A DNA stretch of 64,000 nucleotides from a virus, in the IMG/VR virus record IMGVR_UViG_3300045988_117710; one strand, given 5' to 3'. Of this stretch, positions 3,001 to 61,606 are shown piece after piece. Under the pieces are notes generated by a model, which did no database searches, was not told the DNA's origin, and saw only the letters and a list, made by a program, of their open reading frames with translations. The translations under genes and the position numbers were made by a program. Position 1 is the stretch's first letter; every line of letters begins with the position of its first letter.

Positions 3001-3015
3001 TAGGGAGGTGTGATT

Positions 3016-8259: not shown

Positions 8260-8265
8260 GTTATT

Positions 8266-8296: not shown

Positions 8297-8305
8297 TCGT
8301 ATAAT
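8291..8305 (+). promoter_or_regulatory. promoter P1, TTTTTCGTATAAT type
   Basis: TCTTTTTCGTATAAT sits on the terminator U-tract. -10 at 8300-8305. Confidence 0.5.
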
Positions 8306-8350
8306 ATTACTAGAGTTATTAATTATCGATGACCACTTCAAAAGGTTTTG

Positions 8351-8365
8351 GTTGTTTCGTATAAT
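8351..8365 (+). promoter_or_regulatory. promoter P2 (tandem to P1) for the dam gene
   Basis: GTTGTTTCGTATAAT. -10 at 8360-8365, 18 nt before the ATG at 8383. Confidence 0.5.
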
Positions 8366-8382
8366 TTAGTGAGGTGTATATT

Positions 8383-9552: not shown

Positions 9553-9597
9553 TTATATATTACAATAGTATGTTATAATGATATTGGAGGAGATATT

Positions 9598-10347: not shown

Positions 10348-10364
10348 TAGAATGATAAGGAGGA

Positions 10365-11348: not shown

Positions 11349-11367
11349 TTTAAGAGGAGAGTAGGTT

Positions 11368-12018: not shown

Positions 12019-12078
12019 TTATACTGGAAAGTATACTCTTTTTACTTTCTAAATTATATATTAATTTAGGAGGTTGTT

Positions 12079-14612: not shown

Positions 14613-14673
14613 TTATAGTGTTAAGTAGTTATATATTTATATAGTTTAGATAGATTCTAAAGAGGAGGTGTTT

Positions 14674-17600: not shown

Positions 17601-18804
17601 ACCTGGTAATAATGGTTCTTATAAACCAGTAACTACTGCTCCTATTGCTAGATATAAGATTGATGTTGTTCAGTTACCTAAGAACTTATATAATCCATCA
17701 TTTGCAGTATTTGATTCTAATTATATTACTGATGTAGGAAGTGGTTGGTATCATTTAGCTGCTGATAGAACAAGTGCAACTGGTGTAGATTATGCTGATT
17801 TCTGGACAAATTGGAATCAATATTTGAAAGCCAATACAGATTATACTTATGTACTTGAAGTTAGAAATGCTAGTGTTAATAGAAGTTTAATATTTGAATT
17901 AGGAGATACTGCTGCTCCTTCAGCTCAATTCTCTACAAACTTTGAGTTGATTGGTGATTCTGCTGATGAACTTAATGGAACACATTTCTTCTATGTTAAG
18001 ACTAAAGCTGATATGAAATCAACTTTATATAATAAGCATTGTGGTAGAGACTTTGTAACTTTACCTGCAGGATGTAATTATAGTTTAGATTTCAGAATCT
18101 CTATTATTGAAGGACATATTCCTGAAGATGAGTTCACTTATTCTGCTTATAAGAATCCTTATATAACAAATCTTACAGCTTGGACGAATGTAGGTAATGG
18201 TGCAAACATTTCTAGAAACTTAACTCATAACTTAAGTAATTATATTGATGGTTCTTATAGTCTTTATATTCCTTATGAGAGATACTATACAACATTCACT
18301 TCTAAAGAATCTCTTATTACTCAGATTATTCCACCTGAGATTCAAATTACTGATGCTAGTACTATTGAATGGGTTGGTACTGATAAGGCAGAGTTTAACT
18401 TTAAGATGTTTGTAGATATCTTTGGATGGTGTGGAACATGGAATGCTAATGAAAATCCACATACTGGTGGATGTTGGGCTGAGTATTCATTAGATTATGG
18501 TAAGACTTGGACAAGAGCTTATGATAATAAAGCGGATAGAGTTATTGAGATTCCACTTACTTGGTTAGATGAGATTTGGCTTCGTGGTTATGGTGCTAAT
18601 CCTGTTGATACTGATGATAAGTTTACTGTTGGTACAGATTCTAATGGTGATCCTATTAAGGTTGAGATTGTTAAGCATGATATGTATTCTTGTTATAAAG
18701 CATGGTTAGCTGAGAATGGTGGTGCTGAGGATTGGACAAGAAAGATTCATTTATCTCATAACAATACGAAAGAGAAGAAAATTCGCAAGATAACTAAGGA
18801 ATAA
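14674..18804 (+). CDS. large S/T/Y/G-rich virion protein, putative tail fibre or receptor-binding protein
   Basis: AGGAGG RBS with ATG at 14674; the track start at 14668 is a GTG. Length 1376 aa. Confidence 0.5.
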   Translation: MASYYSSDSSVNLKNFGKKAYLQADVSYSRSGTTGYNVTVAVYLKTRSTSTSCPFYSYSCYQYCSINGVEKRNTSSSNPSSSWRARDGVHLWSSTQFVDPGGPAYSCPFSVTYRVPSGTYTFSSQQTFSISNSITLPATWVAPTQTFLTSATNTTTNNTSSSSRSFTDNTHASGNTSYVGDSFSYTWDKNDQANVGSNANPGSYAYLARSSSNTSGSVNNHPSTGTDIHTAWGWTHGGDDLYVGGYTYTAVPADGGNYLLACMYKYYADSNGNACHFHQANGHYIQAIPTISATYTVRSRKLYRSSPSTVVVQLSAISITTNGYRIHRRNSDMGIVEFHTCTANGFASATRGSADNGQTSNYSMSGRTYQLVWKNAAASNVSAGTYTSGVYSRYQSPNLTAAYTTGHDLYTVSNALTVVDGSFSKIAAKNFKITNPSSQYPTSASTMNFLLGWEYNGTHNNVRGDYRIERSTDGSTWGVGGISGGTVYKDWRGWTVDTDLSSTGWRIDQSGTTYVYADVPLSTTGYYYRISLIPSSTDSAGYQIFGDPIYLVSDKIYRVIIPAVPKVNYLTSILPPIVGIANDFYYKYQNTSNWGNFSPNTDFGHIRRQYYDGSHYEDLTDTSNITASGYVEGVYSKTVPSTSTGSLSLRVKSSVKTTNWSDTEFTSAQSNYKSLALIAQKKYSITASDVAISTPLATTLLRNIPFTLSLPRKTINGNYLINSGSIYVDGTKSSDFNDLSYTLGDVAGWGTTFVGGNTTLGSDGVCTSISGDRSISFANKSWSTDTLTRGVHTIKVDVEILTYFDSDGVRTINGTNYNLPTNHVLFGSTGVLSSNTLTVEIGDIPAAPTINIPNPQFFNAGQERKLTWTFSPNDWGVNDTTYNNRHYDYELYNPAGTKIQSGTIAKGTTSHTYTFTPSNADLGSYKFRLRQVNVLGVSNWVESEIEIQKAIEPTTSTFSTSEVIALADWDYSLSIKPGNNGSYKPVTTAPIARYKIDVVQLPKNLYNPSFAVFDSNYITDVGSGWYHLAADRTSATGVDYADFWTNWNQYLKANTDYTYVLEVRNASVNRSLIFELGDTAAPSAQFSTNFELIGDSADELNGTHFFYVKTKADMKSTLYNKHCGRDFVTLPAGCNYSLDFRISIIEGHIPEDEFTYSAYKNPYITNLTAWTNVGNGANISRNLTHNLSNYIDGSYSLYIPYERYYTTFTSKESLITQIIPPEIQITDASTIEWVGTDKAEFNFKMFVDIFGWCGTWNANENPHTGGCWAEYSLDYGKTWTRAYDNKADRVIEIPLTWLDEIWLRGYGANPVDTDDKFTVGTDSNGDPIKVEIVKHDMYSCYKAWLAENGGAEDWTRKIHLSHNNTKEKKIRKITKE

Positions 18805-21167: not shown

Positions 21168-21200
21168 AAGTCAACAATATTGTTGACTTTTTCTTTTGTT
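21168..21200 (+). terminator. intrinsic terminator overlapping a downstream -35
   Basis: 9-bp stem AAGTCAACA/TGTTGACTT plus a T-tract. Confidence 0.7.
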
Positions 21201-21211
21201 TATCGTATAAT
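21183..21211 (+). promoter_or_regulatory. consensus sigma-A-type promoter TTGACT-N17-TATAAT for the PARP-like gene
   Basis: -35 at 21183-21188 lies in the 3' arm of the terminator hairpin. -10 at 21206-21211, preceded by CG. Confidence 0.65.
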
Positions 21212-21236
21212 AGAGACAATGAAAGAGGTAATGTTT

Positions 21237-22496
21237 ATGAAATTTGCAAAGTTAATTATGATTACTGAAGACAATCACAATAAAGAGTATATAATGACTC
21301 AGATTGATTCTTCAACATTTAAAGCTGAATGGGGTAGGGTTGGTTCTAGTTATCAATCAACTACTTATTCTATGTATGAGTGGGATAGTAAGTACAAATC
21401 TAAAGTTAAGAAAGGTTATAAGGATATATCAAATCTAGTTGAGAAGGTTACTGTAGATGGTGATGTTAAGACTTTACCTTATGACTATATTACTAATAAG
21501 TCTGTCAAGGATATTCTTAATAGATTGTATCAATATACTGATTCTTACTTAAAGGAAAACTACTTAGTTAATACTGTAGATGTTTCCAAAGCACAAATTG
21601 ATGAAGCTTATAAGATTATTGATGAGCTTGAAAGATTAGCTTATTCAAGACATTTAGATGTTCGTGAAGTTAATAGAAATTTAATTAAGTTATTTGAAAC
21701 AATTCCAAGACGTATGTCTAGAGTTAAAGATTATTTATGTGATGATTCTATTACTAAAGATAAGGTTGATGAAAAGATTCGTGCTGAGTTAGATATGCTT
21801 AAGACTATGTCAGATGCTGTTGAGTTAAGACTTAAGAAACAAGCTGCAAGTAAGAAGACTACTAAGGTTGAGAAGTTATCTGAATCTGAACAAAAGGATA
21901 AATTACTTGCTGATCTTGGATTAGTTGTAGAGGATGTAACTGATGAGGATATTAAGTTTATTAAGAAACAATTAGGTGAAAGTTCACACTTATTTAAGAA
22001 AGCTTGGAAGATTACTAATCCTGCTACTGAAAAGAGATTTAATGATTTAGTTGCTACTGATGATTTCAAAGGTAAGGAAGTTAAATATTATTGGCATGGT
22101 TCTAGAAATCAAAACTGGTATAATATTATTCAAACAGGATTAACTGCTAATCCTAAGGGTGTTAAGATTACTGGTAAGATGTTTGGTTATGGTATCTATT
22201 TTGCACCTAAAGCAAAGAAGAGTGTTAACTATACTTCTCTTGAAGGTTCTTATTGGGCAAGTGGTAATGATAAGAGTGGGTTCATGGCTTTATTCGAAGT
22301 TGCTATGGGTAATGTGTTAGATGTTTATGATCATCATTACTGGTGTTCAAGAACTAACAAAGAAGAGATGTGGAAACATAACAAGTGTCATACTTTATAT
22401 GCTCACGAAGGTAGAGGTTTCTTATACAATGATGAAGTTATTGCATATGATGATGCACAAGTTAATATTAAATATATAGTGGAGTTGAGTAGATAA
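21237..22496 (+). CDS. PARP-like ADP-ribosyltransferase (WGR domain plus PARP catalytic domain)
   Basis: WGRVGS motif near the N-terminus. C-terminus YWHGSRNQNW..TGKMFGYGIYFAPKAKKSVNY...LYNDEVIAYDDAQVNIKYIVEL is near-collinear with the PARP1 catalytic signature including the H-Y-E residues. Real ATG at 21237 (AAAGAGG RBS); the track ORF runs upstream through the promoter. Confidence 0.75.
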   Translation: MKFAKLIMITEDNHNKEYIMTQIDSSTFKAEWGRVGSSYQSTTYSMYEWDSKYKSKVKKGYKDISNLVEKVTVDGDVKTLPYDYITNKSVKDILNRLYQYTDSYLKENYLVNTVDVSKAQIDEAYKIIDELERLAYSRHLDVREVNRNLIKLFETIPRRMSRVKDYLCDDSITKDKVDEKIRAELDMLKTMSDAVELRLKKQAASKKTTKVEKLSESEQKDKLLADLGLVVEDVTDEDIKFIKKQLGESSHLFKKAWKITNPATEKRFNDLVATDDFKGKEVKYYWHGSRNQNWYNIIQTGLTANPKGVKITGKMFGYGIYFAPKAKKSVNYTSLEGSYWASGNDKSGFMALFEVAMGNVLDVYDHHYWCSRTNKEEMWKHNKCHTLYAHEGRGFLYNDEVIAYDDAQVNIKYIVELSR

Positions 22497-44258: not shown

Positions 44259-44466
44259 GAAGTTGTTTTGTAGACATCAATGGAGAGCTGTTCAGAAGAG
44301 AACTTCCAATCATTGTGATGATTATATTTACTTTTCAGATTTAGGGTTTTGGGATGATATCAAATATAAATGTGAGAAGTGTGGCAAGGAAAAGATTAAG
44401 ACTGTGGCAAATAGCAAACATCCTCTGTTACATGAATGGGAGGATTTAAATGACAAAGATAGATAA
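44245..44466 (+). CDS. zinc-ribbon protein
   Basis: GAGGTAGGTGG RBS, ATG at 44245. Confidence 0.45.
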   Translation: MSWIKKLFCRHQWRAVQKRTSNHCDDYIYFSDLGFWDDIKYKCEKCGKEKIKTVANSKHPLLHEWEDLNDKDR

Positions 44467-45010
44467 AGAGCTTTATAAGATTTATGATGAAGCTTGGAGA
44501 GTTTTAGATGATTATAAGGAAGAGCTGTTGAAGTATAATGATACTTCTAGCTTGAAGAAGGCAATGTATAATATTGATTCAGTTGTTGTTAATAGGAGAT
44601 GTAATTCTAGGAGAGGTTGTTGTAAGCATTTAGATGGTAATACTGTTAAGGTTGAGCTTTCTGGTTATATGTTATCTTTACCAGAGAAGGAAGCAGTTAC
44701 TACAATGGTTCATGAGCTTCTACATTGTTTTAGAGATTCACGTGGTCATAGAGGTCAATGGTTATGGAGAGCCAATTTGCTTAAGAGTAGAACTGGGTTG
44801 AATATTACTAGGGTGAGAACCATTGAGAATGAGTATGAGTTGAGAAAAGATTATTATGAACAACGAGCTAGGAATCAAAGAGAATATAATATAGTTTGTA
44901 GATGTAAGAATTGTGGTTATGAGATTCGTAGAAGTAGGGAGACACAATTCACGAAGCATCCAGAGTTTTATAAGCATCCACAGTGTGGTGGAACTTTTGA
45001 AAGGGTTTAG
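44450..45010 (+). CDS. SprT-like zinc metalloprotease domain protein with a C-terminal zinc ribbon
   Basis: HELLHCF (HExxH) motif and C-terminal CRCKNCGY..C. Confidence 0.5.
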   Translation: MTKIDKELYKIYDEAWRVLDDYKEELLKYNDTSSLKKAMYNIDSVVVNRRCNSRRGCCKHLDGNTVKVELSGYMLSLPEKEAVTTMVHELLHCFRDSRGHRGQWLWRANLLKSRTGLNITRVRTIENEYELRKDYYEQRARNQREYNIVCRCKNCGYEIRRSRETQFTKHPEFYKHPQCGGTFERV

Positions 45011-45046: not shown

Positions 45047-45448
45047 ATGAGAGTTAATGTCGGTGATGTGGTTTTGGCAAAGTATATGAATTTTGATGGT
45101 GAGATATCTTTTGGTTTATTCACGATTTGTTATCATGAGTGTTATGATAATCCTGTTTCTACTAATTTTACAGCTATTAAGGTTTGTACTAGATCTGGCT
45201 GTTATCAAATTAATTTACTTAAACGTTCTTTACCGTTTTTGGAACATGATTCGTTTTTAAACTGTAATATGCAATTTCGATTCAGAGAGGATCAGGTATT
45301 AAAGATTTGTGGTAGGTTAACACCTTACTATTGTAATAAGATGTTACAGCAAGTTATGAATTACAATTCTGCTATGAATAGACAATTGCAAGATTTAATT
45401 GGTGATGATATTTTTGAAGATTTGAAAGATAGAATTTCAAATAGTTGA
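45047..45448 (+). CDS. hypothetical protein
   Basis: GGAGGTG RBS. Confidence 0.5.
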   Translation: MRVNVGDVVLAKYMNFDGEISFGLFTICYHECYDNPVSTNFTAIKVCTRSGCYQINLLKRSLPFLEHDSFLNCNMQFRFREDQVLKICGRLTPYYCNKMLQQVMNYNSAMNRQLQDLIGDDIFEDLKDRISNS

Positions 45449-45458
45449 GGTGGTTTTT

Positions 45459-46634
45459 ATGAAAGAGTTTGTTATTAAGAATGAACTTATGATGTTCATT
45501 GAGGAGCATGAGGATTGGAAGGTTCTATTAGCTTCTGATCCTTATAATCTAATTATTAAGGAAGATGAGGATTTTCCTAATGTTTATTTATTCAAGTATA
45601 ATATGTTAGAGTCTGATATGTATCAGAAGATTTCCCAAGAAGCGAGAGGTTTAATAGTTGAGGTTTCTGAAGTAGCTGGTAGACGTGTGACTAAGATGTT
45701 AGCACATTCTTTTGATAAGTTCTTTAACTATACTGAACCTCAAGGTGTTATGGTTCTAGAGAATTTCAATTGGGATAATTATAGTTTCCAAGAGAAGAGA
45801 GATGGATCTCTTATGAGATTGTGGTTCTATAAAGATAAGTGGGTTGTATCTAGTTCTGGTACTATTGATGCTCATAAAGCCAATATTCAGATTCCTAGTG
45901 TAGGTTATAATTCATTTGGTGATATGTTTGATGCTATTATTAAGAAGTATGATGTTGATTTTGATTCTTTAGATAAGGGGATAACTTATTCATTTGAGAT
46001 GACTTCACCAGACAATAAGATAGTAGTTGATTATGACTCTGATGAGCTTACTCTTATTGGTATGAGAGTTAACAAGTTGAATATGGAGCTTGATCCTATA
46101 TCTTTTAATCCATTTAAGGATATTAAGGTTGCTGAGAGATTTGAGTTTACTTCTCTTGATGATGCTTTATCTATTATTAATAATAGAACGAATTTTGAGG
46201 GCTTGGTTTTGGTTGATTCTAGTTTCAATCGTGTTAAGATTAAGACTGAGGAGTATTTAGCTTTAGCAAAGATGTCTGACATGGCAAGTTCTGATAGAGG
46301 TATCTTAAGGATGATTCTAGCTGGTACTATAGATGATGTTGCAAATCGATTACCACATTTACAACCACGAATTGATATCGTTAAGGGTTTTGTGGAATCA
46401 GAAATTACTAATATTAAGCAGTTGATTAGTACTGTTGATTTTACTCAAGATAGAAAGACAATTGCTCTATCAGTTAAGGATAGTCCTTATGCTAGGTTTG
46501 TATTTCCATTGATTTCTAATCCTGATCAGGATGTTATTGGAGCTTATTTTGTGTCTGATAACTTGGAGAAGATTTACAAATCTTATAAGGAAAGGTTCAA
46601 TTTAAGTGAAGAAACTGAAGAAGAAGTCATATAA
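45459..46634 (+). CDS. RNA ligase, T4 Rnl1 (RnlA)-like
   Basis: Nucleotidyltransferase motif I KRDGSL (T4 Rnl1 has KEDGSL). GAGGTGG RBS. Confidence 0.6.
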   Translation: MKEFVIKNELMMFIEEHEDWKVLLASDPYNLIIKEDEDFPNVYLFKYNMLESDMYQKISQEARGLIVEVSEVAGRRVTKMLAHSFDKFFNYTEPQGVMVLENFNWDNYSFQEKRDGSLMRLWFYKDKWVVSSSGTIDAHKANIQIPSVGYNSFGDMFDAIIKKYDVDFDSLDKGITYSFEMTSPDNKIVVDYDSDELTLIGMRVNKLNMELDPISFNPFKDIKVAERFEFTSLDDALSIINNRTNFEGLVLVDSSFNRVKIKTEEYLALAKMSDMASSDRGILRMILAGTIDDVANRLPHLQPRIDIVKGFVESEITNIKQLISTVDFTQDRKTIALSVKDSPYARFVFPLISNPDQDVIGAYFVSDNLEKIYKSYKERFNLSEETEEEVI

Positions 46635-46651
46635 TAGTTGACTTCTTTTTT
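46623..46651 (+). terminator. intrinsic terminator overlapping a downstream -35
   Basis: GAAGTCA/TGACTTC stem plus TTTTTT. Confidence 0.6.
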
Positions 46652-46666
46652 GTTTTATCGTATAAT
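46638..46666 (+). promoter_or_regulatory. consensus promoter TTGACT-N17-TATAAT
   Basis: -35 lies in the terminator 3' arm. The 24 nt from the -10 onward are identical to 21206-21229. Confidence 0.65.
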
Positions 46667-46691
46667 AGAGACAATGAAAGAGGTGAATGTT

Positions 46692-47408
46692 ATGAAAGAC
46701 ATGCTTATGAATGAGTATAGTGTTTCAAAACTATTTGTTAAGAATAGTCCAACAAGTAGAATTAACAGCAGAGCGGATTTTGGTTATAAGGAAGAACATG
46801 TATGGGACATTGAGAAGTACCTATCTGATGAAGAGAAGTTAGAAATTATTGATTACCATACTGATGGGTTAGGTTCTTATATTCTAGATCTTATTAGAAA
46901 CTATCAAGTTGTAAGAGAGAATCCAGAGGTTCTTAAGAGAACAACTTATGGAGGGTTTAATAAGAATTCATTATTGAAGTGGTTGAATACAGCTGATCCT
47001 AGAAATGTATGTTCTAGAATTCTAACTCGTAGTTATCCTACTTATTGGATGTTCAAGAAGGAGTTTAGATTAACTGAGGATTGTCCTACAACTGACTATG
47101 GTTATAGGTTCTTATATACAGACCAACCTGTTGTTAGACAATGGTTTCATGATTTACTTAATAAGTTAAATAAGGAAGAGACTGAATGGTTTTTATTAAA
47201 TGATGAACATGAGGTTAAGATAAATAAGGTTAAGGATTTAGCTGATATTGTAGGGACTGACAATTTAAATAATCGTAAGTTATCTGACCTAGTTTGGAAT
47301 AATAAACGTGATGGTTTTACTGATGAAGAGTTGGATCGTTACATAGAAGTTTTAAGTGATATTGTTAATTATATGAATGAGAAGAAAGCTCAACTTGAGT
47401 TAATATAG
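46692..47408 (+). CDS. hypothetical protein
   Basis: Consensus promoter at 46638-46666 and a 5'-UTR identical to that of the PARP-like gene. ATG at 46692; the track ORF is extended through the promoter. Confidence 0.55.
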   Translation: MKDMLMNEYSVSKLFVKNSPTSRINSRADFGYKEEHVWDIEKYLSDEEKLEIIDYHTDGLGSYILDLIRNYQVVRENPEVLKRTTYGGFNKNSLLKWLNTADPRNVCSRILTRSYPTYWMFKKEFRLTEDCPTTDYGYRFLYTDQPVVRQWFHDLLNKLNKEETEWFLLNDEHEVKINKVKDLADIVGTDNLNNRKLSDLVWNNKRDGFTDEELDRYIEVLSDIVNYMNEKKAQLELI

Positions 47409-47420
47409 GAGGTAATGTAT

Positions 47421-47678
47421 ATGTCAAAAGTAAGTTTTATGTTAGGAAGTAATTTAGTATTTCAAATATCAAAGAGTAATTATATGTCTGCTAATCAGAT
47501 TGTGGATTTCTTAATGGAGCAAGGTTGTTTCACTCTTAAGAAAGACAATGTTATGAAGTCACTTGATAATATGTTATATTATGGTCGTGAGATTACAGCT
47601 GGTGAGTATGATTGTTTAACTGGTAAGGTTACATTAACAATCTCTGATGAGGTTTGGGAGGATCCATATGGATGTTAG
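47421..47678 (+). CDS. hypothetical protein
   Basis: AGGAGG RBS. Confidence 0.5.
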   Translation: MSKVSFMLGSNLVFQISKSNYMSANQIVDFLMEQGCFTLKKDNVMKSLDNMLYYGREITAGEYDCLTGKVTLTISDEVWEDPYGC

Positions 47679-47877
47679 AAGTTATACGAAGGATTTATTA
47701 AGGGAGCTTGGTGCTAAGGGATATATGATTGTCCCTTGCACACAAGAAGAGCAAGAGGAGATATTTACAACTTTGAGGTCTAATGGTAGATGTGCAAGAG
47801 CTGGTTATATCTATAATAAGGAACATGAGAAGATATTCTTTGTTCTAACAAAGAAGAGAAATAAGGTTGGTGCTTAG
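47668..47877 (+). CDS. hypothetical protein
   Basis: GGGAGGA RBS, ATG at 47668. Confidence 0.45.
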   Translation: MDVRSYTKDLLRELGAKGYMIVPCTQEEQEEIFTTLRSNGRCARAGYIYNKEHEKIFFVLTKKRNKVGA

Positions 47878-47878
47878 T

Positions 47879-48370
47879 ATGATTAAGATTAAGTATGGTG
47901 ATTTGTTAGATGCAACGGAAGATGTAATCTGTCATCAATGTAATGTTCAAGGTATCTTTGGTGGAGGTTTAGCTGCTCAGATTGGTAAGAGATGGCCACA
48001 ATGTGCTTTCTCTACTGAAGGGTTCGCTGAAGTATTTGGTTCTGGTGTTCTAGGTATGGTTCATTATTGGAAGACTCCTGATGGTAGAACTGTTTGTAAT
48101 TGTTTTACTCAGAGGGAGGATTTCACTACTGATTATTGTTTTCTAGAGAAAGCTTTTACAGAGATTCTTACAATTTGTAAGGAGAGTAATCTTTCAGTAG
48201 CAGTACCATTTCAGTATGGTTGTGGTATAGCTCATGGTGATTGGAATCAGGTATTAGATATCTTTACTAGGTTATCTACTGATATTGGTGTTGATATTAA
48301 TGTTTATTATTTGAAGGGAAGTGTTCAAGATGCCTCTAATAGTGAAGGACAAATATTTGGAGAAGAATAG
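47879..48370 (+). CDS. macro-domain (ADP-ribose binding / hydrolase) protein
   Basis: YGDLLDATEDVICHQCNVQGIFGGGLAAQI matches the macro-domain core (GDIT..DAIVNAAN..GGGV). Confidence 0.6.
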   Translation: MIKIKYGDLLDATEDVICHQCNVQGIFGGGLAAQIGKRWPQCAFSTEGFAEVFGSGVLGMVHYWKTPDGRTVCNCFTQREDFTTDYCFLEKAFTEILTICKESNLSVAVPFQYGCGIAHGDWNQVLDIFTRLSTDIGVDINVYYLKGSVQDASNSEGQIFGEE

Positions 48371-48575
48371 TTGGGTTATAGGTGATTTACTAACTGCTAG
48401 AGAAATGATTGATGTTATTGTTAGAGATTTAGAATCTAATGGTAGAACTCATGTAGATTATGTTCTAGAGAAGTTAGAAAGAGCAGAGAATATTTTAAAT
48501 AATATTAATGGGTTATGTTTAAGAAATTCTAATAAAGGAGTGAAGAAAGATGAAGACACAAGTTCAAGTAATTAG
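48330..48575 (+). CDS. hypothetical protein
   Basis: GAAGGGA RBS then ATG at 48330. Confidence 0.4.
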   Translation: MPLIVKDKYLEKNSWVIGDLLTAREMIDVIVRDLESNGRTHVDYVLEKLERAENILNNINGLCLRNSNKGVKKDEDTSSSN

Positions 48576-48978
48576 GACCTATGATAGAAGTGTTTTTGAA
48601 AAACAACTATCTGAAGCTTATGCAAGTAAGGATGTAGTTAATGTTAATACTCATACCGAGTCTTATTTCAATGGAAGGGATTTAGTTATCTATTATATAG
48701 CAATTGTGTTCTATAAGGAGAATGTTGGTGAGATTGCTTTAGTGAATAGGTCTAAGTCAGATATTCTAGTTAGTAATTTAGGATTAAATTCTAGAGCTTA
48801 TGGTGTGTTGGTTAGACATAATAGACATATGACTCTTGGTGATCTTGTTGATTTAATAAGATCTGGTAGTATTTATAAGATGAAGAATATTGGTGGTACT
48901 ACTGTAACTCAAATTAAGGAGAGATTAGTTGAGTTAGGTTTAGTTAAGGAGGAGAGTTCAAATGGCAAAGATAGATGA
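48550..48978 (+). CDS. protein with an RNA polymerase alpha-subunit C-terminal-domain-like (HhH) fold
   Basis: LGLNSRAYGVL..GDLVDLIRSGSIYKMKNIGGTTVTQIKERLVELGL is collinear with the E. coli alpha-CTD ([45 protein letters not shown]). Confidence 0.5.
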   Translation: MKTQVQVIRTYDRSVFEKQLSEAYASKDVVNVNTHTESYFNGRDLVIYYIAIVFYKENVGEIALVNRSKSDILVSNLGLNSRAYGVLVRHNRHMTLGDLVDLIRSGSIYKMKNIGGTTVTQIKERLVELGLVKEESSNGKDR

Positions 48979-49135
48979 GCTTAGAGAGATAGCGAAAGCA
49001 TATTGTAAGAAGATGGGTTATAAGTTTATATTCGCTAATGAATATAAGTTTGGTTTCGAGGATAAGCAAGGTGGTTTATGGACTTTAACTTATTTTGAAT
49101 TAGAATCTAAGTTGAAGGAAATGAATAATCAATAA
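48962..49135 (+). CDS. small hypothetical protein (57 aa), not in the ORF track
   Basis: AGGAGAG RBS, clean ATG..TAA. Overlaps the end of the previous gene. Confidence 0.4.
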   Translation: MAKIDELREIAKAYCKKMGYKFIFANEYKFGFEDKQGGLWTLTYFELESKLKEMNNQ

Positions 49136-49159: not shown

Positions 49160-49243
49160 ACAATGACAATTCTTTAGTTGTCATTTGTATGTCACGAGTA
49201 ACCCCATACTCAGTGAATAGCACTCTATACGAGTGCTTTTTTC
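49160..49243 (+). promoter_or_regulatory. structured 5' leader with a possible attenuator upstream of 49267
   Basis: Hairpin AATGACAA/TTGTCATT at 49162-49185, then the terminator hairpin at 49219-49243, both lying between the promoter and the RBS. Confidence 0.35.
49219..49243 (+). terminator. terminator or attenuator hairpin inside the leader of the phosphoesterase-ligase gene
   Basis: AGCACTC/GAGTGCT stem plus TTTTTT, 25 nt before the ATG at 49267. Confidence 0.6.
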
Positions 49244-49266
49244 GTATTTAAATTAAGGAGGTACCT

Positions 49267-50934
49267 ATGGTTAATGTTTTCTTTATTAGTGATTTACATC
49301 TTAATCATGGCAATATTATTGATTATTGTGATCGTCAGTTTAATAGTATTCAGGAGATGAATGATACTATTGTTAGGAATTGGAATAGTGTTGTAGGTCC
49401 AGATGATATAGTTTATTTTCTAGGTGATTTTGCTTTAGGTAGAGATGTAGATAAGGTTTATGAGGAGTATTCGAAGCTTCTGAATGGCACTATCTATTTC
49501 TTAAGAGGAAATCATGATAAGTCTAGATCTGTTGTATCTAGGTATTTTAATTTAATCGATACAGGTACGACTGTTTCTTATAATGATTCTCATTTCATTC
49601 TTTCCCATCATCCTTTATATGATTCAGAGATTCCTAAGGGATATGTTAATCTTCATGGTCATATTCACAATAACAAGTTGAGTAGGGTTTATGATTCTGG
49701 ATGTCATTTTAATGTTTCTGCTGATGTTACTGATTTCACACCATATTTCGTAAAGAATATTATAGATGATATTTCCTCTGGTTCTTTAGTTCCAAAGAGA
49801 ACTGGGGTTGATAGAGTTAGGAAGGATGATGGTAGTATGAGAAAGTTAGCTACAGTGCAAACTATTTTAAATGTTGAACCTATACCTGATGCTGATGCAA
49901 TTGAGGTTGTTACAGTTAAGGGTTGGAAGGTTGTTGTAAAGAAGGGTGAGTATCAAGTTGGTGATAAGGTAGTTTATTTCGAAATTGATTCACTTATTCC
50001 AAGAAGTTCAATAACAGAGTTTTTGATGGAAGATGAGTATATGTTGTCTGCTAGATTAAGAACTAGAAAATTAAGAGGTCAAGTATCTCAAGGTTTAGTT
50101 ATTTCTTTAGAAGATTCTCTTGTTATGGCTGAAGAGTTAAATGGTGCTGTTGAGTTATTTGATACTGATGATGGTACAGATGTTTCTGATTTACTTCATG
50201 TTGAGAAGTATGAACCACCTGTTACTTATGGTAACGAGGGTAGATGTGTTGCTTGGCCATTTACATTGACTAAAACTGATGAAGAGAGAATTCAAAATAT
50301 TCCTGAAGTTATTGATAAGTTGATCGAGAATGGAACTCATTTATGTATTTCAGTTAAGTTAGATGGTACTTCTATGACTGTAGTACATCAACCAGATGGT
50401 ATTCATGTAGCTGGTAGAAACAATGATTTTGATAAGACAGATGATTTTGCTTTCAATAATAAGTATTGGTCTACAGCTCGAAGATATGGTGTTACAGATG
50501 CTTTAGAAGAAGCCCATATAAATAATCCAGACAAATACTTTGCTGTTCAAGGTGAGTTAGTTGGTCCTGGTATTCAAGGTAATAAGATGAATTTATCAGA
50601 TTTGAATTATTATATCTTTAACTTATTTGTTTCTGAAGATGAATGCAGAACTTGGAAGAAGTTAGGTTATGAAGAATTAGTTCAGTTCTGTATTGATTAT
50701 GATCTTACTCATGTTCCTTATATTTATTCAGATTTCGAATTGAAGGCACATGGTTTAGTAGATGTTGATAGTATTCTTAAGTTTGCGGAAGGTACTTATA
50801 GAGATAATGCCGAGGGTTATTTCCCAAATGCTAAAGCCAATCAACAAAGAGAGGGGTTAGTGTTTAGAACTCTTGATCATCAATTCTCTTTTAAGGTTGT
50901 TAATAATATCTTCTTACTTAAGGGAGGAGAATAA
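49267..50934 (+). CDS. metallophosphoesterase fused to a nucleotidyltransferase-family (RNA/DNA) ligase domain
   Basis: N-terminal DLHLNHG, GDF and GNHD. C-terminal motif I KLDGTS. AAGGAGG RBS. Confidence 0.6.
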   Translation: MVNVFFISDLHLNHGNIIDYCDRQFNSIQEMNDTIVRNWNSVVGPDDIVYFLGDFALGRDVDKVYEEYSKLLNGTIYFLRGNHDKSRSVVSRYFNLIDTGTTVSYNDSHFILSHHPLYDSEIPKGYVNLHGHIHNNKLSRVYDSGCHFNVSADVTDFTPYFVKNIIDDISSGSLVPKRTGVDRVRKDDGSMRKLATVQTILNVEPIPDADAIEVVTVKGWKVVVKKGEYQVGDKVVYFEIDSLIPRSSITEFLMEDEYMLSARLRTRKLRGQVSQGLVISLEDSLVMAEELNGAVELFDTDDGTDVSDLLHVEKYEPPVTYGNEGRCVAWPFTLTKTDEERIQNIPEVIDKLIENGTHLCISVKLDGTSMTVVHQPDGIHVAGRNNDFDKTDDFAFNNKYWSTARRYGVTDALEEAHINNPDKYFAVQGELVGPGIQGNKMNLSDLNYYIFNLFVSEDECRTWKKLGYEELVQFCIDYDLTHVPYIYSDFELKAHGLVDVDSILKFAEGTYRDNAEGYFPNAKANQQREGLVFRTLDHQFSFKVVNNIFLLKGGE

Positions 50935-50935: not shown

Positions 50936-51730
50936 ATGAAGTATTTATTTCACTTCGCTATGATGAAGGAGTGTCCTACTGAGTTTATTAAGTTACCAGA
51001 AGGTGTACATGATGATTTAAGTGGAGATGATATTGTAGGTTTATTTGATACCATTTATCCTAATATTAAGTTTTGGGTTTCTGGTGTTGGATGCAATAAT
51101 GTCCTTTATCCTGATTATGAAGTGGTTAATTATCTTAAGACTTGTGATTATGTTTATAGTTTTGGTTTATCTGGTTCTATTAATGATAATCTTAAAGTTG
51201 GAGATTTGGTTAATGTTCATAGTGTTAATAATCTAGATGTTAAGATGCCTGGGTATGGATTAGGTTGTACTGATGATTTTGATGCAGATTGTTTAGGTTG
51301 TTCAAAGTCTAATCTTACAGCTTTATCTGATTTTAATACTAGGGTTATCTGTTATACTTCTAATCGATTTGTTACGAAGGAGTATTTAGATTTCTTATTT
51401 GGTGATAATTCTGATGATAATTTAGATGATTTCTATGATGATGCTTTTAATGTAGCATTTGATGAGAATGTGATTACTTCTTTAGCTTTAGGTTTTATTG
51501 ATGAACCAAAGAAAGATTGTATAGTTTGTGAGATGGAACTATTCTATCTTAAGAAGTTTGTTGATATTATTAATAAGTCTTGTCCTGTATGTGCTTATAA
51601 GTTAGTTTCTGATATAGTATGTAAACCTGATAATTATGAAGAGTATGAAGGTTCTTTACAAACTCTATTATCTAGTTTACATTTTGCTGTAGGAGCTGCT
51701 GTTAAGGAGTTAGGTTCAGATGGAGAATAG
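50936..51730 (+). CDS. PNP/MTAN-family nucleosidase or phosphorylase-like protein
   Basis: VSGVGCNNV and FGLSGSIN..LKVGDLV resemble the SGIGKVNAA and GTAGGL..VGDVV motifs of MTA/SAH nucleosidases. GGGAGGAG RBS then ATG; the track ORF is extended upstream. Confidence 0.4.
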   Translation: MKYLFHFAMMKECPTEFIKLPEGVHDDLSGDDIVGLFDTIYPNIKFWVSGVGCNNVLYPDYEVVNYLKTCDYVYSFGLSGSINDNLKVGDLVNVHSVNNLDVKMPGYGLGCTDDFDADCLGCSKSNLTALSDFNTRVICYTSNRFVTKEYLDFLFGDNSDDNLDDFYDDAFNVAFDENVITSLALGFIDEPKKDCIVCEMELFYLKKFVDIINKSCPVCAYKLVSDIVCKPDNYEEYEGSLQTLLSSLHFAVGAAVKELGSDGE

Positions 51731-52220
51731 TATGAAGGTTCAGTTAGCAGATATTACTTTTGATTCATGTGTAGATGGTCCTGGGTTAAGAACTGTTGTG
51801 TGGTTGTCTGGGTGTTCTCATAGATGTCCAGAGTGTCATAATGAACGTTTACAGGATTTCCATTATGGTTATTCCATGGATGTTAATGAGTTAGTTGATA
51901 CTTTATCTAGTTCGAAGAGGATAACTTTCTCTGGTGGTGATCCATTGTTTCAAGTGAATGCTTTAGATGAGATTATTGGTTCTCTTGATCCAGAGACAGA
52001 CATTTGGATTTATACTGGTTTTACTTTAGATAAAGCCAAGGAGATTCTGATGGATAAGCCAAATCTTAGAGAGTCTGAATTTACTATTAAGTGTGGTAAG
52101 TTTGATAAGAGTCTTAAGGATCCTAGTTGTAAGTTTAGGGGTTCTAGTAATCAAAGGATTTATCATTATATTAATGGTATCTTTACTGATATCTCTGACA
52201 AGATTGATAATAGAAAATAA
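51720..52220 (+). CDS. nrdG: anaerobic ribonucleotide reductase activating protein (NrdG-type radical SAM activase)
   Basis: VDGPGLRTVVWLSGCSHRCPECHN, FSGGDPL and DPSCKFRGSSNQRIYHY are collinear with E. coli NrdG. Confidence 0.7.
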   Translation: MENSMKVQLADITFDSCVDGPGLRTVVWLSGCSHRCPECHNERLQDFHYGYSMDVNELVDTLSSSKRITFSGGDPLFQVNALDEIIGSLDPETDIWIYTGFTLDKAKEILMDKPNLRESEFTIKCGKFDKSLKDPSCKFRGSSNQRIYHYINGIFTDISDKIDNRK

Positions 52221-52279: not shown

Positions 52280-52528
52280 ATGTATTCTCATAATTATAAA
52301 GGTTTACCTTATAAGCAAAGTGTTAAGCGATTTGAGAAGGATTATCGTATTAGATATTGTTTGTATGGTAAGTATTCCAAATGGAGAACTGCTTCTGGGA
52401 AGAAGATTCGAGTTAAGGATTTAGATTATCACCATTTAATTAATATTGTTAATTATTTTGGGAATACAAAGATTCGAAATGATTATCCATTTGTTTGGTA
52501 TAGATATGTGAAAGAGGTGGTATTGTGA
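52280..52528 (+). CDS. small hypothetical protein
   Basis: Consensus promoter at 52233-52261. AGAGGTGAA RBS then ATG at 52280. Confidence 0.5.
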   Translation: MYSHNYKGLPYKQSVKRFEKDYRIRYCLYGKYSKWRTASGKKIRVKDLDYHHLINIVNYFGNTKIRNDYPFVWYRYVKEVVL

Positions 52529-53565
52529 AGAAGTTCACAGCAACAGTTTTAATGGGTTATCCTGGTTCTGGTAAGACTAGAGCAAGTTCTTATAAGCATT
52601 TAAGAACTAATGATGCTTTATATCTATCTTCTGATGATTTAAGAGTAGAGATGTTTGGTTTCAGAGATCAGGAGCATAATAAGGAGTTATTCGAAGAGTT
52701 ATATAAGAGAGCAATCAATTATTCTGATAAGGGAGATGTTTTAATTGATTCTACAGCTCTTACTAGAAAAGATAGATTGAGGGTTATTGCAAAGCTTGGT
52801 AAGTACTTCAATATGAGATTAGTAGTAGTTGTCAGACCTATTTGGGAGATTGTGGAGGAGAATCAAATCAGAAAGGTTTCTAAACCTGAAGAGTATATTC
52901 CTGAACCAATCTTTAAACAGATTCTTGGTAGATTTCAATTACCTACTTATGATGAGGGTTGGGATGAGATTAGTTTTTGTTTCAATTCTTCTATTGAAGA
53001 ACATAATGATCCTAATCTATTATTAAAATGTTTTTATGATTTAGATAAGGTTGAAGATATTGCACATGATAATCCACATCATCCAGAGTCAATCAAGGAA
53101 CATGTTAATTATGTTTTAGGTAAGGTTAAGGAAGAGACATCAAGTTTTGTATTAGAGTCTATTGCTTATTATCATGATTTAGGTAAATTTTATGTTATTC
53201 AGTATAATGAAGAGAAAGGATATTCTCAATGTATTGGTCATGCAGCTGTTTCAGCTTATATCTATTTGACAGATTTCTTGATTAGGGCTGTTTTAGATTC
53301 TATTGAGAAAGATGACTTTACTAATCCTTTTAGTAATTTAGAGTTTCTTTTAATTTATTATGGAGTGTTCTATCATGATTATCCTTATTCATTTACTGAT
53401 TTTGAAGATATGGTTAGTTCTTTAAGTAAACCTAGTAAACCATTGATTCATTTATTTAAAAATCTTAATGATGGTTTAGTTGGTATTTCTATGAGAGAGT
53501 TTACAAGAATGTTAATAGATTTTAATTGTTATGATAGAATGAGGGAAGGTGATTCAGATGAATGA
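52525..53565 (+). CDS. bifunctional P-loop polynucleotide-kinase-like domain plus HD phosphohydrolase domain
   Basis: Walker A VLMGYPGSGKT. C-terminal H..HD motif (HHPESIKEH ... YYHDLGK). Confidence 0.55.
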   Translation: MKKFTATVLMGYPGSGKTRASSYKHLRTNDALYLSSDDLRVEMFGFRDQEHNKELFEELYKRAINYSDKGDVLIDSTALTRKDRLRVIAKLGKYFNMRLVVVVRPIWEIVEENQIRKVSKPEEYIPEPIFKQILGRFQLPTYDEGWDEISFCFNSSIEEHNDPNLLLKCFYDLDKVEDIAHDNPHHPESIKEHVNYVLGKVKEETSSFVLESIAYYHDLGKFYVIQYNEEKGYSQCIGHAAVSAYIYLTDFLIRAVLDSIEKDDFTNPFSNLEFLLIYYGVFYHDYPYSFTDFEDMVSSLSKPSKPLIHLFKNLNDGLVGISMREFTRMLIDFNCYDRMREGDSDE

Positions 53566-54358
53566 GAGTATTCTGAAGGCATTAGATATTCTTGAGTCTA
53601 GAGGATATAATGTAGTTTATTTAGGATATTATGGTGCTCATAATTATAATCTTAATGATGAGCAATCTGATTATGATTTTAAAGCCATTGTTATTCCTAC
53701 TCTTAAGCAGTTGATTAAGAGAGATGTTATTTCAACTACTATTGAGTGTGAGTTTGGTAATATTGATGTTAAGGATTTACTTACATTTACAACTAATATG
53801 AATAAGGGAAACTTTAGTTATATTGAGTCTTTACATTCTAATTACTTTTTAGACTTTGGAGAAGCTTTTCTAGGAATTTCTATTAGGGATTTGTTTAAGG
53901 ATGTTAAGGTTAATTGGATGTCTATGGTTGGTGCTATTTATGAGAAGAGAAAAGCTCTTACTCATGAGTATCCTAGTAAAACTGCAGAGTTTGAGAAGTT
54001 TGGTTGCGATCCTAAACAGTTCTTACAAGCAATTCGTTTGTTTGATATTCTTCGTAGAAGAAGTAAGGATGTTGAGAATTATAATAAGTCATTTGAGACT
54101 TATTCAGATGATGGAGTTCAGTTTGAGTTAGTTGAATTTGAATCTGAAGCAAGTAGTAGAAAGTATGAGTTTTCTCATCAGGATTTAATTGCTATGAAGA
54201 GAGGTTTATTAATGCCTCTAGATGAGACTATTAGAATATTTGATTATATTCAAGTTAAGGCAAGAGATTATATTTCTAAAGATTATAAGTTTGAACCTTT
54301 AGATTATACTGATGAGGTTATTGACTTATTAGTGACTTATTTTAAGAACAATTTATAG
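53558..54358 (+). CDS. Pol-beta-superfamily nucleotidyltransferase
   Basis: G[GA]x9SDYDF motif (YLGYYGAHNYNLNDEQSDYDF). GGGAAGG RBS then ATG at 53558. Confidence 0.45.
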   Translation: MNESILKALDILESRGYNVVYLGYYGAHNYNLNDEQSDYDFKAIVIPTLKQLIKRDVISTTIECEFGNIDVKDLLTFTTNMNKGNFSYIESLHSNYFLDFGEAFLGISIRDLFKDVKVNWMSMVGAIYEKRKALTHEYPSKTAEFEKFGCDPKQFLQAIRLFDILRRRSKDVENYNKSFETYSDDGVQFELVEFESEASSRKYEFSHQDLIAMKRGLLMPLDETIRIFDYIQVKARDYISKDYKFEPLDYTDEVIDLLVTYFKNNL

Positions 54359-57629: not shown

Positions 57630-58517
57630 ATGGTTTATGTAAATGGAAATGCAACTGTTTCTATTGATGACAATGGGAGAAGAGTTGTTGAGTGGCCAGA
57701 TGGTGAGGATTTAAGATTAGAGTATCCTTTAAGTATTGATTTAAATATTTCTAATAGATGTTCTAATGGCTGTACTTATTGTTATGCTGGTAATACTCCA
57801 ACTGGTAGGGTTGCAGATTTCTTGACAATGAATTACTTGGATGATATGTTAGCTGGTAGTGAGATTGCTATCAATATTCAATATCCTTTACCAGAGAATT
57901 TTGAGTTCTGGTTAGAGAAGATGAAGAAGCAAGGTGTAATTGTTAATGCTACTATTAATCAATTAGATTTTGAAAGAGATGAAGCTATTATTGATCAGGT
58001 AGCTGATTGGCAAGATAGAGGTTTATTACATGGTATAGGTATTTCATATCGAAGTAATAATTACATTTATGATAAGATAGGGAAACTTAAGAATGTTGTT
58101 ATTCATATGATTGTTGGTATTCATACTCTTGAAGAGATTAGAGCAATGTTATTGAATTATAATGTTTTAGTTCTAGGTTATAAGTTCAAAGAGCGTGGAA
58201 TTACTTATAGTCAAATGAATCAGTTTGTTTCTTCTAGTATTGAGATGTTAAAGCTTCGTGCTGACGAACTTCTTAAGAGTGTTGGTCGTGGGGTTTTATG
58301 CTTTGATACTAAGGCGGTTGAACAGCTTGAACTTAAGAATCATTTATCTGAAGAAGATTGGAATACTTATTATCAAGGTGATGAGGGAACAATTTCATTT
58401 TACATAGATGGTGTCAAAGGTACTTTTAATACTGATTCTCATACTAATGATGAACCAATTCCTATTGATGGAATGTGTATTAAAGATATGTTTAGAGTAA
58501 TAAGAGAGAAGGTGTAA
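57630..58517 (+). CDS. putative radical SAM enzyme
   Basis: CSNGCTYC (CxxxCxxC) cluster at aa 43-50. Confidence 0.4.
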   Translation: MVYVNGNATVSIDDNGRRVVEWPDGEDLRLEYPLSIDLNISNRCSNGCTYCYAGNTPTGRVADFLTMNYLDDMLAGSEIAINIQYPLPENFEFWLEKMKKQGVIVNATINQLDFERDEAIIDQVADWQDRGLLHGIGISYRSNNYIYDKIGKLKNVVIHMIVGIHTLEEIRAMLLNYNVLVLGYKFKERGITYSQMNQFVSSSIEMLKLRADELLKSVGRGVLCFDTKAVEQLELKNHLSEEDWNTYYQGDEGTISFYIDGVKGTFNTDSHTNDEPIPIDGMCIKDMFRVIREKV

Positions 58518-60356: not shown

Positions 60357-60842
60357 ATGTATACGAATACTGAGATGTATCAACACGCGAAGTTAGAATT
60401 AGATAAGTTGTTAGAACTTGAGAGAAAGGATAATCTTAAACGTTCTGTAGAAGAGTTAGAGAACGAAGTTGCAATGTTTGATGGCAAGACTCCACAAGAG
60501 TTTATGAATGATGCTATTCTTAATGTTATTGCTTCTATCAATTCAGAAATTAATTCTTATAATTCTATGGATTATTTACTTAATACTGTTTATGATTTAG
60601 TTAAGTTTAGAAATCTTACACCACTTACTTTAGGAGATGAAGAGTGGGTTCATGTTTTAGATGATCCTGATAGAGGAAGTGTTTATCAGAATATTAGAAA
60701 CTTTGCAGTGTTTAAAGATGACAAGAATGGTGTATATCATTCTGATGGACAAGAGATGCTTAATATTGCTTGTGGTAAGTATCCAGAGTCTGGTGAAGTA
60801 ATGGAAGTTTATCAAGATAATGAAGGAGAGTCTAATGAGTAG
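60357..60842 (+). CDS. hypothetical acidic protein
   Basis: Promoter at 60330-60335, AGAAGGAGATGG RBS. Confidence 0.55.
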   Translation: MYTNTEMYQHAKLELDKLLELERKDNLKRSVEELENEVAMFDGKTPQEFMNDAILNVIASINSEINSYNSMDYLLNTVYDLVKFRNLTPLTLGDEEWVHVLDDPDRGSVYQNIRNFAVFKDDKNGVYHSDGQEMLNIACGKYPESGEVMEVYQDNEGESNE

Positions 60843-61234: not shown

Positions 61235-61606
61235 ATGTTAGGTAATTTTATTGTAGATTTTTTAAATGATTCTTATACTTTTAGTAGACCACTTTCTAAT
61301 AAGGTTAGTGCTTATAAGAGAGACTATGAAGATAAGATAACTATTATTCAAGAAGCATATGGTGTTTCTGAAGATAATATTTCAGTTGAAGTTGTTAAGG
61401 AATATGGAGCTGCTTTTCTAAAGGTTAAGGGTTCTACTAAGAATGATGTTCTTAATGCAACTTTTGAGTTTAGCAATTCTTTTAGAATTGATCCTGATAC
61501 AATTAAGGAAATTAATTATAAGTCTAAAGATGGACTTCTTTATATAGATTTGGTTAAGAAAGAACCAGAGAAACCATCTATCAAAATTAGTAAGGTAGAA
61601 GAATAG
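61235..61606 (+). CDS. hypothetical protein (weak Hsp20/alpha-crystallin-like features)
   Basis: AAGAGGAG RBS. Beta-rich pattern ending LYIDLVKKEPEKPSIKI. Confidence 0.45.
   Translation: MLGNFIVDFLNDSYTFSRPLSNKVSAYKRDYEDKITIIQEAYGVSEDNISVEVVKEYGAAFLKVKGSTKNDVLNATFEFSNSFRIDPDTIKEINYKSKDGLLYIDLVKKEPEKPSIKISKVEE

Follow-up and report, generated by a model that had tools for sequence, protein, structure and literature searches.

The stretch of viral DNA analysed here is the IMG/VR virus record IMGVR_UViG_3300045988_117710, 64,000 nucleotides long and called the window below, and the gene in question encodes a small protein that had been predicted, from the sequence alone, to be a macro-domain protein (the macro protein). 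Its open reading frame (ORF) is exact in both the ORF list and the raw sequence and runs on the plus strand from an ATG at position 47879 to a stop codon ending at 48370. The protein begins with MIKIKYGDLLDATEDVICHQCNVQGIFGGGLAAQI, and the peptide quoted in the original prediction corresponds to residues 7-35. A TTG at 47867, four codons upstream, is a possible alternative start; the ATG is favoured because a public protein of 163 amino acids (aa), P0001, which is 99% identical, starts at the same methionine. All homologues open with the same M-[IL]-x motif. The macro protein is strongly acidic, with an isoelectric point (pI) of 4.6 and a net charge of -10. The window carries genes for a T4-type major capsid protein, a tail sheath and a baseplate and therefore belongs to a large tailed phage. 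It represents about one third of a genome of roughly 180 kb, and near-identical genes were found on contigs of up to 185 kb. All of its genes lie on the plus strand, and a tRNA scan of the window found none. At the DNA level the phage has no close cultured relative; a megablast search with 8 kb around the macro gene against 50,697 phage genomes gave no match.

As had been predicted, the macro protein belongs to the macrodomain superfamily; it is a divergent member rather than a non-member, and its similarity to macrodomains is far beyond chance. It matches phrog_335 at 1.3e-26, a family labelled 'phosphatase' after the old Appr-1-p designation, and the DarG models of NCBIfam (8e-8) and PADLOC (1.2e-12), the latter only over positions 1-154 of the 329-position model. 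A phmmer comparison with the sequences in the PDB retrieved SCO6735 (7.8e-6), Mycobacterium tuberculosis DarG (2e-5) and yeast Poa1p (4.8e-5). With a profile built from 64 aligned family members the same database returned BT1257 (2.7e-23), M. tuberculosis DarG (3.5e-21), SCO6735 (3.3e-19), Poa1p (2e-16) and human TARG1 (6.6e-16). At E<=1e-3, an exhaustive profile search yielded 13,696 cluster representatives, most of which stand alone and are about 150 aa long. The AlphaFold2 model of the macro protein, built on ten sequences, is confident (predicted local distance difference test, pLDDT, 86.5; predicted template modelling score, pTM, 0.81) and displays the three-layer alpha/beta/alpha macro fold. 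Foldseek found 176 matches to this model in the PDB at E<=1e-3, and nearly all of the best 50 are macrodomains. The top match is DarG (5m3i, 7e-11), with template modelling (TM) scores for DarG of 0.75-0.80, and the best matches as a group (DarG, BT1257, Thermus DarG, SCO6735, TARG1 and Poa1p) reach 0.7-0.83. Against viral models, the search returned the tk.4 product of Acinetobacter phage 133 and many phage proteins annotated as 'macro domain'. The Pfam model PF01661, with which the prediction was to be checked, does not match the macro protein even at E<=1. This miss was rejected as evidence against a macrodomain, since the relatives, the other hidden Markov model (HMM) libraries and the predicted fold agree; the same model recognizes 53 of the 64 aligned family members, the best at 3.1e-13.

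Both ADP-ribose-binding loops of the macrodomain can be located. The Gly-rich loop 1 (HQCNVQGIFGGGLA), on which the prediction of a macro fold was staked, is properly placed in the AlphaFold2 model, between strand 16-22 and helix 30-38. Loop 2 (PFQYGCGIAHGDW, core GCGIAHGDW) lies between strand 107-110 and helix 122-136, and its counterpart in SCO6735 and BT1257 reads GCGLAGG(T/K)W; in the alignments both loops coincide with those of DarG, SCO6735 and BT1257. Asn22 in loop 1 is invariant in 64 relatives and aligns with Asn22 of DarG and Asn27 of SCO6735, and P110, G114, G120 and W122 of loop 2 are likewise invariant. Gln78 is conserved in at least 90% of the same relatives, occupies the position of the catalytic lysine of DarG (Lys80) and TARG1 (Lys84), and aligns with Gln85 of SCO6735. 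The position of TARG1 Asp125 is taken by Ala118. Residues 149-163, the C-terminal tail, are missing in most homologues and form the only disordered part of the model. The last 15 codons share their DNA, in another frame, with the start of the ORF at 48321-48575.

What defines the SCO6735/BT1257 branch within the ALC1-like class is a glutamine at the catalytic position. Judged from these alignments, the macro protein is assigned to the ALC1/TARG1-like class and, within it, to the glutamine (SCO6735) subtype. SCO6735 and BT1257 are the best sequence and profile matches in the PDB and share the fold; the equivalents of Asn22 and Gln78 are kept in both, and in all three proteins a small residue replaces Asp125 of TARG1. 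Human TARG1 (OARD1) and yeast Poa1p belong to the same macrodomain class by fold and profile. The Lys84/Asp125 dyad of TARG1 is Gln78/Ala118 in the macro protein, and a TARG1-type Lys/Asp catalysis was therefore rejected. DarG of the DarTG2 system is the top fold match, its HMMs match residues 1-154, and its Asn22 is kept. It differs in having a C-terminal DarT-binding domain and an adjacent darT gene, neither of which was seen for the macro gene, and in its catalytic Lys80, which is Gln78 here. On these three grounds an identity as a DarG antitoxin was also rejected. No match to the DarT family was detected among the neighbours or the other window ORFs scanned.

SCO6735, an enzyme of the glutamine type, reverses DarT-made thymidine ADP-ribosylation of single-stranded DNA both in vitro and in cells, and it takes Glu-linked ADP-ribose off automodified PARP1 E988Q (PMC9411070). 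Its substrates further include ADP-ribose at the phosphate ends of RNA, though not RNA ADP-ribose linked to a 2'-OH (PMC11833690). An N27S exchange nearly abolishes its activity and Q85A is inactive on DNA and protein substrates; the catalytically dead protein can still inhibit DarT through binding (PMC9411070). A longer, basic and mobile loop after the glutamine, used for DNA, has been described as typical of the SCO6735 subclass (PMC9411070). Here the macro protein differs: the loop of SCO6735 (HGMKTGSKGAPVR) has 13 residues, whereas only seven, REDFTTD, lie between Gln78 and Tyr86 of the macro protein, and they are net acidic. In addition, Val25 of SCO6735 is Gln20 in the phage-encoded, strongly acidic macro protein.

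The macro protein, which Pfam does not see, is a new member of an established and very large group, the AdfM-type stand-alone phage macrodomains. A transposon screen identified tk.4 as the only gene that T4 requires on a DarTG2 host, and a clean tk.4 knock-out sensitises T4 to DarTG2; Tk.4 was named AdfM (bioRxiv 10.1101/2025.11.20.689424). In vitro, the AdfM of phage PhiKZ, gp104, clears DarT2 adducts from DNA, and it protects chimalliviruses (PMC13309987). The macro protein shares with these two that it is phage-encoded and stands alone, its 163 aa holding no extra domain, and it matches both. Tk.4 is also a stand-alone phage macrodomain of about 155 aa with the N-x-[FY]-[TS]-Q motif (NLYTQ in Tk.4) and the H-x-x-N and G-x-G loops, and it is also non-basic (pI 5.9 versus 4.6). 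The two proteins are only 22% identical (BLASTP E 6e-5), and their contexts differ, as tk.4 lies between tk and vs and the macro gene between RNA ligase genes. T4 moreover uses Alt/Mod-type transferases and not a PARP as in the window phage. The match of the family profile to PhiKZ gp104 has a probability of 98.9% (E 2.8e-17); gp104 differs in being a lysine-type macrodomain, with Lys78 where the macro protein has glutamine. Homologues of T4 Tk.4 occur in T4-like phages and in Felixounavirus, and the structural match in Acinetobacter phage 133 is itself a tk.4 product. By tblastn the family is present in 897 of 50,697 phage records (389 from Escherichia phages), under names such as 'Appr-1-p processing', 'phosphatase' and 'macro domain'.

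Table 1. Features of the window that are discussed in the text, in order of position.
Feature	Position	Strand	Description and support
PARP1-like ADP-ribosyltransferase	21180-22496	+	438 aa; helical regulatory region and catalytic domain; PF00644 1.1e-21
T4 Rnl1-type RNA ligase	45450-46634	+	PF09511 4.1e-18; phrog_562 2.6e-49
Three small genes (256, 87 and 76 aa)	46638-47877	+	Between Rnl1 and macro gene; no assigned function
Macrodomain gene	47879-48370	+	163 aa; stand-alone; assigned to the ALC1/TARG1-like class, Gln subtype; no DarT-binding domain
Loop 1, ADP-ribose-binding, Gly-rich	47933-47974	+	H19-Q-C-N22-V-Q-G-I-F-G-G-G-L-A32; model and alignments
Asn22 codon	47942-47944	+	Within loop 1
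Gln78 codon (CAG)	48110-48112	+	Motif N74-C-F-T-Q78; alignments
Loop 2, diphosphate-binding	48206-48244	+	P110-F-Q-Y-G-C-G-I-A-H-G-D-W122; alignment and model
C-terminal tail, residues 149-163	48323-48370	+	Lineage-specific; pLDDT <50; overlaps next ORF
84-aa ORF	48321-48575	+	Between macro and alpha-CTD-like genes, overlaps both
142-aa protein	48550-48978	+	Weak alpha-CTD-like (helix-hairpin-helix) C-terminal half; PF03118 and rpoA models
Terminator-like hairpin and T-run	49219-49247	+	AGCACTC-TATAC-GAGTGCT; consensus scan only
Metallophosphoesterase, OB-fold and RNA ligase fusion	49267-50934	+	PF00149 5.4e-9; PF21189 1.1e-28; PF09414 2e-21
Polynucleotide-kinase-like P-loop kinase, then weakly RlaP-like nucleotidyltransferase	52525-54358	+	PF13671 5.6e-11; PF10127 1.5e-3
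Tad3-family anti-Thoeris protein (type I Thoeris inhibitor)	60357-60842	+	PF25185 2.2e-20

The macro gene is part of a tight string of overlapping or abutting genes that extends from about 45047 to 49135, with the Rnl1-type RNA ligase near its start (Table 1). The string is closed by a terminator-like hairpin located in the only sizeable gap of the region; a promoter scan gave matches no more frequent than in shuffled sequence. Downstream of the hairpin follow the metallophosphoesterase-RNA ligase fusion, which is predicted to be an end-healing and sealing enzyme, the kinase and the RlaP-like gene. The HD-domain match of the kinase is weak (PF01966, E 0.011, 16.4 bits, below the 22-bit cut-off), and the RlaP-like match is below the Pfam cut-off as well. 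Further on lies the Tad3 gene, which marks the region as a counter-defence island of a phage that evidently meets NAD-based host defences. The RNA-repair toolkit made up of Rnl1, phosphoesterase-ligase, kinase and RlaP-like protein is probably directed against host anticodon nucleases. A Pfam scan, which covered mainly the window ORFs of at least 100 aa, detected no Tpt1/KptA (PF01885), PARG, 2H phosphoesterase, NADAR or DarT among them.

A 63%-identical relative (L004) has retained the order Rnl1 - x - x - macro - x - phosphoesterase-ligase - ... - kinase; its Rnl1-type ligase is 81% identical and syntenic, and the 256-aa and 87-aa ORFs are conserved in it. The arrangement is also kept in the near-identical strains L083-L085, where an 81-aa ORF takes the position of the 84-aa ORF. 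Two of these strains have an extra DUF723 gene, possibly a mobile gene of the homing-endonuclease type, directly after the phosphoesterase-RNA ligase (L083 12421-13356, L085 9145-10080), which is not found in the window. Homologues of the kinase and RlaP-like genes recur near macro genes in other phages, and more distant relatives of the macro gene adjoin DNA methyltransferases or, at a prophage end, an integrase. The generality of this neighbourhood was surveyed within 10 kb of a family member at 60 IMG/VR loci, grouped at 60% identity into 25 lineages. Five of these lineages have homologues of the phosphoesterase, RlaP, kinase or ligase genes, one more has a radical-SAM homologue only, and the remaining 19 have none detectable. 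We read this as a gene that belongs to accessory counter-defence and repair islands and is not an obligate component of RNA repair.

The original prediction had placed the macro gene immediately before an alpha-CTD-like gene, that is, one related to the C-terminal domain of the RNA polymerase alpha subunit. The two genes are in fact separated by the 84-aa ORF, which has no family match in Pfam, PHROG, NCBIfam or PADLOC. The likeness of the 142-aa protein to alpha-CTD is weak: PF03118 matches at 1.4e-4 (22.0 bits, below the 23.8-bit cut-off), the NCBIfam rpoA models match at 1.2e-5, and its PDB matches, at E 0.014-0.2, are all RNA polymerase alpha. In the PDB alignments it keeps an arginine aligned with Arg265 of Escherichia coli alpha, the residue modified by T4 Alt and ModA. 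An AlphaFold2 model of this protein was unusable (pLDDT 48), and a homologue search gave one cluster only, 95% identical. The gene is absent from the syntenic L004 and present in the near-identical L083-L085. The alpha-CTD-like protein is thus a lineage-specific curiosity and not evidence on the target of the macrodomain.

Several other genes of the window attracted attention. The alpha-CTD-like ORF is followed in the gene string by a 57-aa ORF. At the other side of the macro gene, the C-terminal 90 residues of the 256-aa protein (46638-47408) match Csn2 (PADLOC 5e-7, TIGR01866 0.003). Csn2 is an adaptation protein of type II-A CRISPR systems, and the phage protein could be a Csn2 mimic or decoy. 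A D12-class N6-adenine DNA methyltransferase is encoded at 8374-9552 among tail and baseplate genes (PF02086, 9e-12), and the region 51720-52220 encodes a radical-SAM 4Fe-4S protein (Fer4_12) resembling ribonucleotide-reductase activases. Weak matches were obtained to a SprT-like metalloprotease (44450-45010, below the Pfam cut-off), to radical-SAM proteins (57630-58517, E 0.0013, below the cut-off) and to Hsp20 (61235-61606). Two long ORFs, 4069-8259 (1396 aa) and 14668-18804 (1378 aa), have no Pfam match at E<=0.01.

Taken with the phage relatives, the most probable reading, to which we give a probability of roughly 45%, is that the macrodomain is an AdfM-like mono-ADP-ribosyl hydrolase that acts on nucleic-acid adducts and serves counter-defence and repair. 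In such an enzyme the two Gly-rich loops would hold the ADP-ribose moiety, and Asn22 together with Gln78 would position the distal ribose for a water-mediated cleavage of the C1'' bond, by which free ADP-ribose would be released. The macrodomain would in this way strip mono-ADP-ribose from nucleic acids. Candidate substrates are the thymidine-linked adducts that toxins of the DarT2 type would leave on single-stranded phage DNA, and ADP-ribose on phosphorylated RNA or DNA ends may be a further one. The gene is probably co-transcribed with the RNA-repair enzymes, within an accessory island that includes the anti-Thoeris gene. Fold, class and the conservation of the residues needed for SCO6735 activity are evident from the comparisons above, while we infer that the protein is catalytically active and acts on nucleic acids, and also the timing and co-transcription of the gene.

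The reversal of DarT-type toxins had been offered with the original prediction only as an alternative. It is now the role backed directly by experiment for the nearest characterised phage proteins, Tk.4 and PhiKZ gp104. The distribution of the family, with 897 phage records that almost all lack a PARP, points the same way. Some observations weigh against a hydrolase for nucleic-acid adducts. For the acidic protein with its short acidic loop REDFTTD, DNA would be no better a substrate than a protein or a small molecule. ALC1, which is a reader without catalysis, likewise has a glutamine at the catalytic position (PMC9411070). For T4 Tk.4, the evidence is of a genetic kind and was published as a preprint. 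Finally, the proximity of PARP and macro genes in other phage lineages, described below, favours a different role.

This different role, the centre of the original prediction and the main rival, is that of a dedicated eraser for the phage's own PARP. The PARP would modify itself, host proteins or nucleic-acid break ends, and the macrodomain would remove the protein-proximal, Glu/Asp-linked or the end-linked ADP-ribose, so that the modification is reversible. An active-looking PARP is indeed encoded in the same genome (Table 1). Its match to human PARP1 (phmmer 1.5e-15) spans the helical regulatory region as well as the catalytic domain, and its WHGSR, GYGIYFA and YNDE motifs align the His-Tyr-Glu triad on PARP1 H862, Y896 and E988. 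Phage PARPs are rare, occurring in 15 of the 50,697 records, and were noted earlier in Aeh1, Cellulophaga phi4:1 and a few jumbo phages (PMC4245714; PMC7824862).

Linkage between the two genes was assessed in PARP homologues from IMG/VR and GenBank phages, which form 11 lineages at 60% identity besides that of the window, by searching up to 10-20 kb of flank per locus with the macro-family HMM. A macro gene lies within 4 kb of the PARP gene in 4 of the 11 lineages: 0.2 kb upstream in L072, 2.2 kb away in L073/74, 2.4 kb in Klebsiella phage FBKp34 and 3.9 kb in L037-39. A fifth, the megaphage LR756500, has one at 10 kb. From the density of the family in the phage collection, a macro gene would be expected by chance in 0.3-0.8% of search windows, and the observed proximity exceeds chance with P about 1e-3 or less even if 4% is assumed; the calculation was made for n=12 and is conservative for 11 lineages. 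The clustering of accessory genes in phages inflates this proximity. In five further lineages (L067/68/76, L069, L070, L075 and Cellulophaga phi4:1) no macro gene was detected within 10-12 kb or the available flank, and none within 10 kb in L066, the nearest relative of the window.

The pairing of writer and eraser thus appears to have real comparative support in other phages, and in L037 both genes even form part of one overlapping operon. The ability of SCO6735 to clear Glu-linked ADP-ribose from automodified PARP1 E988Q (PMC9411070) and the acidic surface of the macro protein, which fits protein substrates, also argue for it. The pairing is less well reflected in the window itself, where the PARP gene lies 25 kb upstream of the macro gene, in another gene block between the capsid and replication blocks, among genes without family matches. 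Eukaryotic and bacterial systems in which a PARP works with PARG or TARG1 offer a parallel, as a PARP1-like His-Tyr-Glu enzyme and a TARG1-class macrodomain occur in one genome and, in several other phages, in adjacent genes; they differ by this distance and by the PARG, of which there is none among the scanned ORFs. ALC1-like macrodomains, moreover, do not degrade poly-ADP-ribose chains. The macro family is about 60 times commoner in phages than PARP (897 versus 15 records), and PARP therefore cannot be its usual partner. Five PARP lineages and L066 lack a macro gene in the examined flank. We give a dedicated PARP eraser a fairly low but appreciable probability, the highest among the competing explanations.

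The surroundings of the phage PARP genes hint at where these enzymes work. In L037 (region 1500-12400) the order is phosphoesterase, Rnl5-like ligase, PARP, RlaP-like, kinase-HD, homing endonuclease, RlaP, macro and NAD-dependent DNA ligase, the last three genes overlapping. An RlaP gene overlaps the PARP stop in L075 (1750-3917), a homologue of Ro60 (TROVE and vWA domains) precedes PARP in L069 (7505-11203), and an ATP-dependent DNA ligase does so in L070 (8345-11191). In Cellulophaga phi4:1 a tRNA nucleotidyltransferase flanks PARP, with a DNA ligase one gene further. L078 (11190-14972) is also among the PARP loci flanked by RNA/DNA end-repair genes. The PARP of L066, 77% identical to that of the window, lies among homologues of the window's 659-aa, 200-aa and Tad3 genes, the same accessory island that in the window holds the macro gene. 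Such neighbours suggest nucleic-acid rather than chromatin-type targets and that phage PARPs may act at RNA or DNA breaks, like eukaryotic PARP1-3.

From gene order it is conceivable, if rather improbable, that PARP and macrodomain form a reversible ADP-ribosylation cycle on broken nucleic-acid ends and not on proteins. The PARP would tag or cap phosphorylated RNA or DNA ends left by host nucleases, and the macrodomain would uncap them before the kinase, phosphoesterase, RlaP-like protein and ligases heal and seal them. The macrodomain is a candidate for the uncapping step because its relative SCO6735 hydrolyses ADP-ribose at phosphate ends of RNA.

Two further explanations are minor rivals. 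One, with a low probability, sees the macro protein as a non-hydrolytic binder of ADP-ribose, be it a reader, a sponge or a direct DarT inhibitor, or as a degrader of immune signals derived from ADP-ribose, for instance those of Thoeris. The catalytic-position glutamine shared with the ALC1 reader domain and the anti-Thoeris Tad3 gene in the same island are compatible with it, as is the inhibition of DarT by dead SCO6735 (PMC9411070), and it has been proposed that some phage macrodomains degrade signals (PMC7824862). Yet the residues on which catalysis by SCO6735 depends, here Asn22 and Gln78, are conserved in the family, and the characterised close structural relatives DarG, SCO6735, TARG1, Poa1p and PhiKZ AdfM are enzymes. 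No macrodomain is known to cleave or sponge cyclic ADP-ribose isomers, which also speaks against this explanation.

The other, still less probable, is a Poa1p-like ADP-ribose-1''-phosphate phosphatase that cleans up after a Tpt1/KptA 2'-phosphotransferase in tRNA ligation, a role proposed for some jumbo-phage macrodomains (PMC7824862). The position of the macro gene between two RNA ligase genes, near the kinase-HD and RlaP-like genes, the RNA-repair-type neighbours in 5 of the 25 IMG/VR lineages, the significant match to Poa1p in sequence and fold and the names 'phosphatase' or 'Appr-1-p processing' in phage records would suit it, but the sequence match to Poa1p covers only the N-terminal part, 19 of the 25 lineages have no RNA-repair or other queried neighbour, and no Tpt1 pathway gene was seen in the window. 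The lack of Tpt1/KptA and of a 2H cyclic phosphodiesterase among the scanned ORFs weakens such a tRNA-splicing by-product role. T4-type repair ligases seal 3'-OH/5'-phosphate ends and leave no 2'-phosphate, and the ligases present here, Rnl1 and the phosphoesterase-fused Rnl, would leave none either.

The macro gene itself is ordinary, one more divergent member of a large and already named family. Its identification is useful for annotation, since Pfam misses the protein, and it provides a candidate anti-DarT factor of an uncultured large phage. Of wider interest is that PARP, the macro family and RNA/DNA end-repair genes recur together in several unrelated phages. If the end-repair cycle outlined above is true, it would give a bacterial virus an RNA/DNA repair module that depends on PARP. 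Such a joint pathway would demonstrate the use of reversible nucleic-acid ADP-ribosylation by bacterial viruses and would offer a simple system for a chemistry that is known mainly from eukaryotic DNA repair.

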